A stretch of DNA of 64,000 bases from Eledone cirrhosa (lineage: Eukaryota). The stretch's first letter is position 1, and the number at the start of each line of letters is the position of its first letter. The notes below the pieces were generated by a model, which saw only the letters and a program-made list of their open reading frames with translations, did not search any database and had not been told where the DNA came from. The stretch spans positions 71,114,001 to 71,178,000 of the forward strand of contig OZ024746.1 in the NCBI GenBank assembly GCA_964016885.1, given 5' to 3'. Shown here one piece after another: positions 6,393 through 63,127 of this stretch. The position numbers were made by a program, and so were the translations under genes.

Positions 6393-6486
6393 AAGATGTC
6401 CGACGAGCCATTGATTCCAGAGTCGGGCTAGATCGATACAGATCGAACCTTGAGCTGATCAATAGCGAAACGCGCATCACCAACCA
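6393..6486 (+). ncRNA. Decayed hammerhead-like motif in a TA-flanked element
   Basis: CCGACGA 6400-6406, stem II GCcATTGAT/ATCAATaGC, GAAA-CGCGCA-TC. Stem I is poor. Confidence 0.35.
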
Positions 6487-7421
6487 ATAAACGTAATGAA
6501 GGAGTAACCATTCGTCCTTGTTTTATTATATTATATATATATATAAGGGCGGTGGATTGGGAGTATCGGTAGAGGGTCGGACGCCATGCTTTGCAGTAAA
6601 GAGTTACAACCCTTTATGGTCTGAGTTCAAATCTCACCGAGGTTAACTTTGCCTTTCGTCCTTACGGGGTCGAAAAAAATCAAGTACCAGTAATACACTG
6701 GGTTAATTGCTGGCCTTGTGCCAAAAGTAGAAACAATTATATATATATATATTTGTGTGTGTGTGTGTGTGTGTGTGTGTGTGTGTGTGTGTGTGTGTGT
6801 GCGTGCGTGTAGTTGAATTTCGTAATAAATATCCAAAGCTGGTAGACTACTCAATCCGGGGGACGAGTTGTGTAATATGAAATTTTTTATTAGTTCAACA
6901 TTACATTTTTCGAATACACGTGTTTCACTGGGCAGATCTAATATACCCTCTCGCTTAAACACGTGCATTCGGAAAACGTATAGATGATGGAATGAAACAT
7001 TATATGAATACATATACATACATACATATATATATATATATATATATATATATATATATATATATATATATATATATATATATATATATATATATATATA
7101 TATATATATTTAATACATTAACAGAGAAAGCTTTAAGCAATACTCCGACCGGCTTCCGTCTCACTCAACAAACATTAGGTTATACCTTAGTATAATCCCA
7201 ATTTTACGTTTGGGGTGCTAACTATACGTATTTTGCGGATAGCCAGTTGTATTATTTTATATGAGACATAATTAAAATACATCTCTCTTTCCAAACAATT
7301 GTTTCATTATAAGTTTTCTACAAATTGGGAAAATAATGTCCAGGTTATGTAGAAGCCTACACATAGTCTGTAGGAATATATGTAGGTGGGCACTTATAAA
7401 TCATCAGTGGATGCCGACAAA

Positions 7422-7563
7422 TTAAAATAACAGATTAAAGTTTAAGCAAAGAATCGCTGCTTTCACCCTTAACGGGATCTTCTGAAACTTTCAGAAGTTT
7501 CAGAAGATCCCGTTAAGGGTGAAAGCAGCGATTCTTTGCTTAAACTTTAATCTGTTATTTTAA
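7422..7563. repeat. ~140-bp palindrome inside TA-flanked element 7110-7657
   Basis: Arms TTAAAATAACAGATT...CTGAAACT / AGTTTCAG...AATCTGTTATTTTAA. Other pieces of the element recur at 29668-29800, 45938-45995, 46085-46140 and 47638-47720. Confidence 0.88.
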
Positions 7564-7789
7564 TAAATATTTGCTCTACGGTTCTTATATATTTAATATA
7601 TATTTATCCTTATCGAGCCCTCTTTGGATTTTAGTCTTCAAATTTATTATTATTACTATATATATATATATATATATATATATATATATATATATATATA
7701 TATATATAGACTATCCAGGGGACTCCAACCGTGAAGGTTGCATTTTTTCAGGGTATGTCAATATTTATTTATAAAACTAATCTATATTA

Positions 7790-7855
7790 TATTTTATCTG
7801 ATGAAAGCGCACCATAATCTGCTTTGGTGGCCCTTGAAATATGTATAATGTAATA
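7790..7855 (+). ncRNA. Type I hammerhead motif, partly decayed
   Basis: CTGATGA 7798-7804, stem II AAG..ACCA/TGGT..CTT, GAAA 7836-7839, TATGTA-TA. Stem I is imperfect and AT-rich. Confidence 0.55.
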
Positions 7856-7978
7856 AATATGGTTTTATAAATATAGTTTCCATTTGTTAATATATATATA
7901 TATATATATATATATATATATATATATATATATATATATATAGTTGAAAATTACAAACTTGACTGTCACCACTGAATA

Positions 7979-8017
7979 TGAACCTGAAGATTGCGAAAGC
8001 ATGAAAGTACTTGTTCA
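7979..8017 (+). ncRNA. Minimal type I hammerhead motif, family C
   Basis: TGAAC-CTGAAGA-tTGC GAAA GCAt-GAAA-GTAC-TT-GTTCA. 5-bp stem I, GAAA-capped stem II, palindromic GTAC loop. Confidence 0.75.
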
Positions 8018-59628: not shown

Positions 59629-59659
59629 AATAATAATAATAATAATTGTTTAATAATAA

Positions 59660-61720
59660 TGGTTTCTTATATAGGCACAAGGCCAGCAATTTTTGGGGGA
59701 GGGGAAAATCGATTAAATCGACCCCAGTACGTTACTGGTACTTTATTTTATCGACCCCGTAAGGATGAAAGGTAAAGTTAACCTCGGTGGTATTTGAACT
59801 CAGCGCGTAAAGGGACGTAACTAAATGCCGCAAAGAATTTTGCCCGAGGTCCTAGCGGAGTTAATAATAACAATAACAAATAATCATGATAACCATACAA
59901 AATTATAATGGAAGTCAACTCAGTAAAATTCCCTAATAGAGGGGTACTGTGCTTTAGGCTAATTCAATAGAAACCCTCCCACTACCCTCAGTACCCACGT
60001 GTACTCTGTCGCACAAAGGGCATTGGATGTTCCCTCTCCTGGTTTCATACTTTCTGTTTATAAAATTATAGTCAGAGGAGGCCTCGTCAAACAATAGTAA
60101 TGGCTTCGTATGTAGGCACATGGCCAGCAATTTTGAGCGAGGGGAAAGTCGATTAACTCAACCCCAGTGTGTGACTGGTACTTTATTTTATCGACCTCGT
60201 ATGGATGAAAGGCAAAGTTAACTTCGGCGGGATTTGAACTCAGATCATAAAGGGCCGTAACTTTATGCTGCAATGCATGGCGTCCGACCCTATACCGATA
60301 CCACCAATAATTGTTTCTACTTTAGGCACAAGGCCAGCAAATTACCCAGTACATTACTGGTACTTTATTTTATAGACCCCGTAAGGATGAAAGGCAAAGT
60401 TAACCTCGGCGGGGATTTGAACTCAGACTGTAAAGGGACGTAACTATGCTAGAAAGCATGGCGTCCAACCCTCTACCGATACTGCCAATTCACCGCCCTT
60501 AATGATTTCTAATTTAGACAGAGAGCCAATAATTTGTAGGGTGGGGAAAGTAGCTTACATCGACCCTAATACGTGACTGGAATATCATTTTATCGATCCT
60601 GTAATGTTGAAAAGTAAAGTTGAATTCACAATGTAAAGAGTCAGAAAAAAATATCGGAATGACATTTTCTCCGACGCTCTACCAATTCTTCCAATTTCAC
60701 CATCGTTCGTCAAACAATATTAATAATTTCTTATATAGGCCCAAGGCCAATAATTTGGAGGAGAAGGGAAAGTCGATTAAATCGACTCTTGTGTTTTATT
60801 GGGGATTTATTTTATCGACCACATAAAGATGAAAAGCAAAGCTAACCACGGCGGGATTTGAACTCAGAGGGACACAACTCTCTGCTGCCAAGTTGTCCGA
60901 CGCTCTACCAATACTGCCAATCCACCTGCCCTTAAACAATAATTGTTTCTACTATTAGCACAAGACCAGCAATTAACCAGTACATTACTGGTACTTTATT
61001 TTATCGACGCCGTAAGGATGAAAGGCAAAGTTAACCTCGGCGGGATTTGAACTCAGAATGGCAAGGGCCGTAACTCTATGCGTCAAAGCATGGCGTCCGA
61101 CGCTCTACCGATACTGCCAATTCACCGCCCTTAAACAATAATGGTTTCTGATTTAGGTACAAGGCCAACAATTTTGAAGGAAGGGGAAGTCGGTTAAATT
61201 GATCTCAGTGCATTACTGGTACTTTGTTTTATCGACCCCCGTAAGGATGAAAGGCAAAGTTAACCTCGGCGGGATTTGAACTCAGACCGTAAAGGGACGT
61301 AACTATGCTAGAAAGCATGGCGTCCAACCCTCTACCGATACTGCCAATTCACCGCCCGTATTAATAATTGTTTCTACTTTTGGCACAAGGCCAGCAATTA
61401 CCCAGTGCATTACTGGTACTTTATTTTATCGACCCAGGAAGGATGAAAGGCAAAGTTAACCTCCCGTAATAATTGTTTCTACGTTAGGCACAAGGCCAGC
61501 AATTACCCAGTGTATTACTGGTACTTTATTTTATCGACCCCGGAAGGATGAAAGGCAAAGTTAACCTCCCGTAATAATAATAGCTGTTTCTTAGATGGGC
61601 ACAATGACAGAATATGAAAAGTCGATTATATCGATCCCATTGCATAACTGGTATCAATTAACTCCGAAAACATGAAAGGCAAAGTTGCGTTTGACGGGAT
61701 TTGAACTGAGAAGGTAAAGA
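59660..61720 (-). mobile_element. Head-to-tail cluster of about 10 SINE copies
   Basis: Repeated TTTCTAC..GGCACAAGGCCAGCAATT..CTGGTACTTTATTTTATCGAC..GGGATTTGAACTCAG, all on the minus strand. Confidence 0.88.
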
Positions 61721-62199
61721 GCCGTTACAAATACCAACACTCTAACGACTTGGCCATTTCTCTAATACATACAAAGAAGGAAAGAAAAGAGAGAGAGAGG
61801 TGAAAGGAGCGAGAGAGCGAGGGAGCGAGTAGAAGAAGAAGAAAAAGAAGAAGAAATAAATAAATAAATAAATAAATAAATAAATAAATAAATAAATAAA
61901 TAAAGAAGTGAAATAAAGGGTACGTAAAAACGACAAAAATGCACTCAATGAACCCAGCCATGTGAATAGGGAGATGCGGCAGGGGATATATTTTCTTTGT
62001 CAGGTTTTAGATGATGCTATATGTGTGCGTGCATATATACTTAGACACACATACACACATACACGAAAACGAATACACACCCCCACACCCCCACACCCCG
62101 ACACACACACATATATATATATATATAAATAGTGACATATGTGCATATACGACAACGAATGACATATGCACACATACATACGTATACAAACATGTACAT

Positions 62200-62920
62200 T
62201 TCTTGTGACACTAAACTTCGCCAGTTGCCGAATGCGCATCAACATGAGATATTTTTCTCCAGAAAGTTCGATCGCCAACAGCAGAGTTTAAATATCAAGT
62301 CCAGTCCATAGGTTGACATTATCAAGTCATCGTTTTGGCTGCCGGCCTCTGCTTCTCTTACTAGCCAAGCTTCCTTCCAGGCATAACCTACTCACACCAC
62401 GAGTTGATCTTTTTATATGGCTGTATAGTTTGAGTACTCTTGACTTGACAATTGATGTAATTGGTCTAAGTCTGGTAATGTTGAACAGCTCATTGATACA
62501 GATACGGTCGCTGAGCCGCTTGCCAGTCATGTCTCATGATGTGGTTCTGGAATGTAGAGAGCTTCATAAGTGACCTTGTTGTCCAATTAATACAGTCAAG
62601 ACCATATAACACAACTGGTAGGATGTAAGTATCAAAGATCTTAGCCTTCAAATGATAGGACACTCGTTTTGATTTTAGTACTTCCTTGTTCTTGTTGAAA
62701 GCTGCCCGACCTAGAGTGATGCGATACTGCGCAGCATCCATTCCATAGTTGTTTGATGATAGTTTGTGACCGAGGTATACAAACTCCGTAACTTGAGCAA
62801 TTTGCTGGTTGTAGATTGTGAGTTGGAGATTAGCATTGTTTTTATCAGTTGTCATACACTTTGTTTTGGAGATGTTGATGTGTAAGCCAGCCTCCAGTAA
62901 ATGTTTGGCCAGTACATTCA
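62200..62920 (-). mobile_element. 3' fragment of an RTE-clade LINE (frameshifted)
   Basis: GLHINISKTKCM...VTEFVYLG...LPVVLYG, then IKSRVLKLYSHIKR...KRSRGRQPKR. Confidence 0.8.
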
Positions 62921-63010
62921 GATACACAAATATATATACTTATGTATATCTGCCAGATGAACTACCGAACTGAAACTCCGAAGTCGCTGTCATTTTTCTA
63001 CTTAAAAACG

Positions 63011-63127
63011 ATTCTGATGAAATGACAGTTGATAATAACATTGAAATATTGAATGTCTGCATAACTAATACTTTGTAGATAGCAGCTGTTTTCAGGTTAT
63101 GTAACTGTTATTGAAACACGTGTCAAT
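63011..63127 (+). ncRNA. Type I hammerhead motif with long stem II, family D
   Basis: ATT-CTGATGA-AATGACAGTT...AACTGTTATT-GAAA-CACGTG-TC-AAT. GTC triplet, palindromic CACGTG. Confidence 0.72.

Follow-up and report, generated by a model that had tools for sequence, protein, structure and literature searches.

A 64,000-nucleotide stretch of the Eledone cirrhosa genome (contig OZ024746.1 of assembly GCA_964016885.1, forward-strand positions 71,114,001 to 71,178,000; hereafter the window) is scattered with short motifs resembling hammerhead ribozymes, which raises the question of whether these are genuine hammerheads and, if so, what kind of element carried them there. A preliminary description, made from the sequence of the window alone, had listed 16 sites and ascribed them to many unrelated families of non-autonomous retroelements that target TA repeats. 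Here we find that the motifs are type I hammerheads and argue, with a probability of roughly 0.85, that they mark the 3' ends of Penelope-like elements (PLEs), four families being linked to coding elements of the Hydra clade and two forming non-coding units, and that they accumulate by the mechanism proposed below. Unlabelled coordinates are positions within the window, L-numbers denote other genomic loci examined and the assembly spans 3.0 Gb; comparisons with published work refer to the sections of each paper available to us.

A dense population of type I hammerhead motifs

The type I descriptor comprised, in order, stem I, the core, stem II (with an optional extra base or closing mismatch), GAA, a loop, UH and stem I again, and accepted the cores CUGANGA, CCGANGA (U4C) or a U3-A8 pair. 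In this relaxed form it recovered 21 motifs in the window, compared with means of 0.53–0.97 (maximum 3) in three sets of 40 dinucleotide shuffles and none in the reversed sequence. Permitting longer stems II and III left 17 motifs at a score of at least 11, or one per 3.8 kb, against a shuffle mean of 0.43 (n = 30, maximum 2) and again none in the reversed sequence. A strict first descriptor, which allowed neither the extra base nor mismatches, had yielded just 4–5 motifs. The excess over shuffles establishes that the type I hammerhead motifs in the window are real, so the population proposed in the preliminary description is borne out, its frequency being unequalled in shuffled sequence.

The full core (CUGANGA…GAA…UH, together with stems I and II) is present apart from the copies at 54215, 6393 and 9878 and families Q and G2. 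Fourteen of the 16 listed sites pass the descriptor; the two that fail are decayed copies of families with better-preserved members elsewhere, namely family M at 6393..6475 (plus strand, U4C core), which has an inverted hammerhead pair in L114, and family K at 9878..9960 (plus strand), whose typical form has a U3-A8 core and a 12-nt palindrome and passes the descriptor at 15 of 25 loci. To the list we add five full motifs, 12 half copies of family Q, four altered-core copies of family G2 and two half copies near 53020. Four further U3-A8 matches (24351 and, on the minus strand, 34676, 39532 and 43647) stand alone or score low, at the level seen in shuffles, and may be due to chance.

Compensatory changes in stems I and II were scored on copies gathered via the core pattern only, covariation being a check that had been proposed at the outset. 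In seven of eight stem tests none of 1,000 partner shuffles reached the observed pairing, and in the weakest, family F stem I, 23 of 1,000 did so, with relatedness among copies ignored throughout. The expectation that routine annotation would miss these motifs also held: an Rfam scan of the window at the gathering score gave no hammerhead match, and none appeared among the 150 of 442 matches listed from an E-value scan, nearly all of which were microRNA-type families on hairpins and microsatellites, the window being rich in TA and other microsatellites. Elsewhere in the genome, RF00163 passes in 18 of 74 scored candidates.

Four families lie behind Hydra-clade genes

Family B provides the clearest coding parent. 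Its insertion in the window (52310..52848), with TA runs on either side, is a palindrome with 221-bp arms and an extra tail of ~100 nt on the left arm only, and it carries hammerheads at 52458-52512 (minus strand, core 52507) and 52743-52797 (plus strand, core 52748). In 30 of 30 loci, and in five of six extended loci, the B hammerhead lies ~1.2 kb downstream of an endonuclease on the same strand. This endonuclease has 57,640 rough candidates in the genome, and all 150 that were scored are 96–100% identical. Open frames combining reverse transcriptase (RT) and GIY-YIG endonuclease reach 894 amino acids (aa) in L147 and 893 aa in L148. The L147 protein contains RWK, DKT, YRDD (seen directly) and GIY-YIG motifs and, as read by eye, a CxCX5C linker and CxxC and CxH around conserved E and N residues, with no CCHH motif; because these diagnostic motifs match the published definition, we place it in the Hydra clade. 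The GIY-YIG domain (PF01541) matched at E = 6.5e-4, below the Pfam cut-off; the full-length 894-aa protein matched no informative Pfam family, and a PDB search with it returned nothing. Among 8,000 sequences scored, 896 were homologs at E ≤ 1e-20, and the 120 of these that were listed included no named reference protein.

The family B parent measures ~4 kb, with a 2.7-kb open reading frame (ORF) and a ~1.3-kb 3' region, and so departs from the typical Hydra size of <3 kb. Copies of family B stop at two discrete 3' ends, 104 or ~203 nt past the motif, and those of family A stop ~125 or 201 nt past it, a pattern that we read as the one-sided PLE tail. Judging from these sequences, family B is the truncated, folded-back 3' end of a Hydra-clade PLE. 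Many family B variants are present in the contigs of one sequencing run.

Three further families follow the same arrangement. Family C is represented by hammerheads at 7790..7855 (plus strand, core 7798), a Hydra 3' end, and 42633..42693 (minus strand, core 42685), the latter absent from the preliminary list; its relatives in L155 and L176 sit 1.4–1.5 kb behind a Hydra endonuclease. A fold-back at 52930-53100 comprises the 3' half of a C-like hammerhead cut off in loop II. Family E has a long stem II and occurs as a U4C copy and Hydra 3' end at 27151..27277 (plus strand, core 27159), on the sense strand of an intron, and as a copy 5'-truncated within stem I at 63004..63138 (plus strand, core 63014). 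The listed sites at 27154 and 63011 are therefore hammerheads as claimed, but their catalytic GAAA is the one ~95 nt downstream, across the long stem II, rather than the first; an interpretation of family E with a G17 site was dropped once the downstream GAAA was allowed. An endonuclease lies upstream of family E in eight of 30 loci, and both RT and endonuclease do so in L429 and L430.

Family Q stands behind Hydra genes in five loci (L339, L345, L352, L425 and L433). The altered core CUGAGAA occurs in 38 of its 40 anchored copies (a set with some overlapping loci), the full form has a stable stem III of 6 bp, and most copies end inside loop II, folded back, as in L197:658-770; 12 of 14 matches in the genome sample described below lack the 5' half. 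In the window, a folded-back Q hammerhead 3' half occupies 49500..49706, with more copies near 4350-4650, 17950-18140, 37240-37430, 42240 and 63210-63410.

Across the linked families the hammerhead lies 0.8–1.5 kb behind the gene, and by this linkage B, C, E and Q are best described as 3' ends of coding Hydra-clade elements, shortened and in many cases folded back. The suggested check of linking flanks to GIY-YIG/RT Penelope ORFs thus placed these four families behind Hydra-clade genes, and since they derive from coding elements the label 'non-autonomous' was overstated, seeming apt for families A and D only. There are indeed many families; 'unrelated' was too strong because at least four share the Hydra protein clade.

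Matches to families C and D that lie close to endonucleases in L128, L074 and L112 were attributed to adjacent insertions, and a link between G2 and an endonuclease in L263 was dropped, since the two are separated by a palindrome arm and the gene upstream is on the opposite strand. Separately, Penelope-type coding fragments of non-Hydra form occur at L083:2125-2874, L176:4818-5350, L105 and L428:440-2260, and some of these fragments have short hammerheads of their own 230–390 nt downstream.

Two families form non-coding units

Family A occupies 10297..12410 as one inverted copy and a partial tandem, with hammerheads at 10743-10816 (minus strand, core 10811), 11560-11633 (plus strand, core 11565) and 12180-12253 (plus strand, core 12185). 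Its 1,297-nt unit is circularly permuted, has a longest frame of 108 aa and gave no match to PLE proteins; the tail continues into the body of the element at six independent places, and a dimer is present in L017. Family D, which is retrozyme-like, forms tandem arrays of 420–492-nt units, each with a type I hammerhead, at L192:456-3366 (seven units) and L149:862-1814, the repeat unit taking in a TA-rich tract. The window holds D hammerheads at 26033..26075 (plus strand, core 26039) and 29064..29106 (plus strand, core 29070), in successive introns of a host gene and on its sense strand, and a decayed copy at 41465..41515 (minus strand, core 41509), all three new to the list. Families A and D look non-autonomous from their sequences, and they are the only two that do; tandem spacing was looked for in E, H, Q and G2 and none was seen.

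The tails of family A in the window contain inserts (10327-10730 and 12275-12390) of a repeat that we take to be a short interspersed nuclear element (SINE). The same SINE-like repeat recurs just after the family A hammerhead, in the same short AT-rich stretch, in L021, L028, L038 and L039, which suggests a preference for the stretch behind this hammerhead.

Genome-wide abundance and association with TA repeats

To place the window in context, we sampled 56 evenly spaced 10-kb stretches along large contigs (559,600 bases, or 0.02% of the genome), excluding three stretches that adjoin the window. The sample contained 69 motifs at a score of at least 11, against 0–4 in five shuffled sets and one in the reversed sequence. 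Extrapolation gives ~3.6e5 motifs per genome (bootstrap 2.4–5.1e5), an estimate not strictly comparable with published counts because it uses our own descriptor on so small a fraction. The number of hammerheads in this genome is likely to be unusually large, at a few hundred thousand. The predicted density of about one motif per 4 kb holds for the window and is halved genome-wide, at about one per 8 kb.

Targeting of TA repeats is well supported: in the 56 genome-wide samples, a (TA)6+ run lies within 250 nt downstream of 57 of 64 motifs and within the same distance upstream of 27 of 64, compared with 17.7% of random positions. In the window the association is weaker for family A, where the SINE-like inserts intervene. 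Searches of the genome with window-derived DNA (with at most 40 candidates scored per family) gave first-look candidate numbers, which are not copy numbers, of 1,693 for A, 105 for B, 459 for D, 1,203 for E, 1,670 for G2, 1,165 for H, 574 for K, 920 for I, 9 for J, 1,518 for F and 1,643 for Q (query from L197).

Proposed mechanism and alternative explanations

We propose that the GIY-YIG endonuclease nicks (TA)n, as the literature on PLE proteins would suggest, and that reverse transcription, primed at the nicked TA repeats, begins with the ribozyme-bearing end and in most cases breaks off early, which would likely account for the pile-up of hammerheads. The non-coding A and D units would, on the same literature, borrow the element protein. 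In a tandem transcript, the palindromic loop is predicted to let two hammerheads pair into a common stem III and free RNA of unit length, in a reaction that is probably slow or helped by protein. Single copies and folded-back ones would for the most part be inactive, the antisense arm of a fold-back masking the ribozyme, and most genomic copies would then be inert stubs. The observations in favour of this scheme are the position and polarity of the motifs, the TA runs immediately after them, 5' truncation of varying extent, inversions by folding back and the two discrete 3' ends.

Several points weigh against this account, beyond the disregard of relatedness in the covariation test. The window is without any PLE coding sequence, and L149 carries the ORF with no family B motif within the stretch examined. 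Monomers fold with both stems in register in four of ten cases, and z falls below −2.5 in three of ten. A parent gene within ~1.5 kb was found in none of 23 matches for family F, 26 for H and 15 for K and in none for G, G2, J and M, and a candidate parent was present in one of 21 matches for I; since such flanks may miss long 3' untranslated regions (longer flanks were obtained for 12 loci), these eight families are assigned by analogy. In published work, eight of nine Xenopus retrozyme dimers were uncleaved and one was cleaved (bioRxiv 10.64898/2026.07.22.740005), and the hammerhead of an Anolis PLE was dispensable for insertion in vitro (PMC11167929). Finally, families Q and G2 have spread with altered catalytic cores and are 97–99% alike across chromosomes. 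All 43 copies of family G2 read GCA instead of GAA, and 17 of 18 copies of its relative G retain GAA; the proportions for G2 and Q are biased because both sets consist largely of best matches to a query of the same form. In these two families, either cleavage is dispensable or the altered cores are tolerated variants.

The last observations bear most directly on the possibility that the hammerheads are passengers, under weak selection in master elements or kept as protein-binding structures, with cleavage unneeded for spread. The young altered-core families Q (CUGAGAA in 38 of 40) and G2 (GCA in 43 of 43), the continued insertion of hammerhead mutants in vitro (PMC11167929) and the published suggestion that hammerheads parasitise PLEs (PMC8557442) are all consistent with it. 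Most families, however, retain the full core, together with the covariation between C3-G8 and U3-A8, stems with compensatory changes and a palindromic loop, all of which points to selection on the catalytic fold. We regard passenger status as possible, at rather less than even odds. It is quite unlikely that most or all motifs are independent non-autonomous retrozymes, as the preliminary description had it: the non-coding unit of A with its tail-to-body continuity, the D arrays of up to seven units and the eight families with no found parent gene could be so explained, but B, C, E and Q lie downstream of Hydra genes, no tandem spacing was seen in E, H, Q or G2, and the upstream length that copies share varies continuously, like 5' truncation. 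Chance matching by a permissive descriptor in DNA rich in AT and hairpins, which may explain the few low-scoring U3-A8 matches, is refuted for the main set by 17 motifs against 0.43 in the window and 69 against 0–4 genome-wide, by the 0–1 matches in reversed sequence, which keeps its hairpins, and by the recurrence of motifs as multi-copy families.

Relation to known systems

The interpretation of the motifs as PLE 3' ends agrees with the published Hydra clade of hammerhead-bearing PLEs that insert at (TA)n, which includes Hydra-1_Obim of Octopus bimaculoides (PMC8557442). Family B shares with that clade a C-terminal GIY-YIG domain, RWK, DKT, the CxCX5C linker, CxxC and CxH; further shared traits are the 3' hammerhead with an extra base or closing mismatch, the palindromic loop III, insertion at (TA)n, inverted truncated copies and a one-sided tail. 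That paper describes one octopus family and elements generally <3 kb, whereas here there are several families and B measures ~4 kb; in addition, stems II are often long here and copy numbers very high. None of the loci examined contained the Hydra-1_oBim hammerhead itself.

Minimal PLE hammerheads (PMC4209133) are likewise mostly single motifs from truncated elements, with close opposite-strand pairs, many families per genome, U3-A8 covariation, an extra base before stem II and predicted dimer activity; their cleavage is low and dimer-dependent (PMC4209133; review PMC6765202). Their counts, at ~2,000–9,000 per genome with stricter descriptors, contrast with our estimate of ~3.6e5. The scheme proposed above draws on work in which a PLE protein nicks AT-rich DNA, reverse transcription initiates internally and the protein assists the hammerhead (PMC11167929).

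Non-LTR retrozymes (PMC7229834; bioRxiv 10.64898/2026.07.22.740005) resemble family D in consisting of non-coding units in tandem, each bearing a type I hammerhead, and in coexisting with PLEs; a 2026 preprint derives retrozymes from PLE ends (bioRxiv 10.64898/2026.07.22.740005). Retrozyme units measure ~170–400 nt, or 51–972 bp in the 2026 survey, so that D (420–492 nt) fits the wider range and A (1,297 nt) exceeds it. Unlike published retrozymes, the D units contain a TA-rich tract, and here they are known from DNA alone. Published counts include ~5,000 motifs in a mussel and 126,247 in the axolotl (PMC7229834), the latter being the largest that we met and coming from a roughly tenfold larger genome. 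Among cephalopods, 235 Rfam hammerheads are reported for the giant squid (PMC6962438), and a repeat annotation of O. vulgaris records 336 recently active Penelope-like insertions, the main text available containing neither 'ribozyme' nor 'Hydra' (PMC13282606). We found no octopus hammerhead census in the literature searched, which did not extend to subscription papers; within that literature, the kind of element is already known and the scale appears new. With its many families, autonomous copies that are still intact, non-coding partners and naturally occurring core variants, this genome offers material for testing the role of the hammerhead in PLEs.

Other hammerheads of the window and the host gene

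The remaining hammerheads belong mainly to families assigned by analogy. A compact family H motif lies at 7979..8017 (plus strand, core 7984), and a long-stem-II hammerhead, new to the list, adjoins a palindrome centred near 7495 (7290..7411, minus strand, core 7407). Family F is present as a U4C copy at 50200..50258 (minus strand, core 50248); an F-like relative at 54174..54218 (minus strand, core 54215) carries an uncompensated G8A and is likely dead. Family G, at 53268..53313 (plus strand, core 53276), shows the U3-A8 core covariation, and two G2 palindromes lie at 47330..47480, with two copies in which GCA replaces GAA, and, as a second insertion, at 51955..52110. Family I is a minimal hammerhead (GAA ACGU U) at 54885..54920 (minus strand, core 54916), and J, at 38685..38767 (plus strand, core 38688), is an old family whose relatives are 76–90% alike. 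A perfect fold-back at 8164-8286, with one relative in L076, has CUGAUGA in both arms and no downstream GAAA, and was left uncounted. If transcribed, the many perfect fold-backs would form double-stranded RNA; a tie to cephalopod RNA editing is a matter of speculation.

A host UNC93-like gene spans 15440..32102 on the plus strand, with exons at 15440-15700, 22653-24155, 27753-27872, 30475-30579 and 31905-32102; one exon matches a protein of Octopus sinensis at 94% identity and one of Argonauta hians at 93%, which marks the host as an octopod. Its introns hold three sense-strand hammerheads (26039, 27159 and 29070), of which the two family D motifs flank the exon at 27753-27872. These two share a palindrome, so that pairing between them across this one exon is possible. 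It is unlikely that all of the following hold together: that this is the densest ribozyme population among the counts compared (~3–4e5), that it comes from many Hydra families, some of them still active, that the altered cores of Q and G2 are functional new variants and that sense-strand intronic pairs such as the two D motifs pair through their palindrome and cut host pre-mRNA. Elsewhere in the gene, an intron contains a 230-aa open frame of ordinary composition with no Pfam match (21176-21868), and the last intron contains a 24-nt tandem repeat at 31239-31593 with open frames on both strands.

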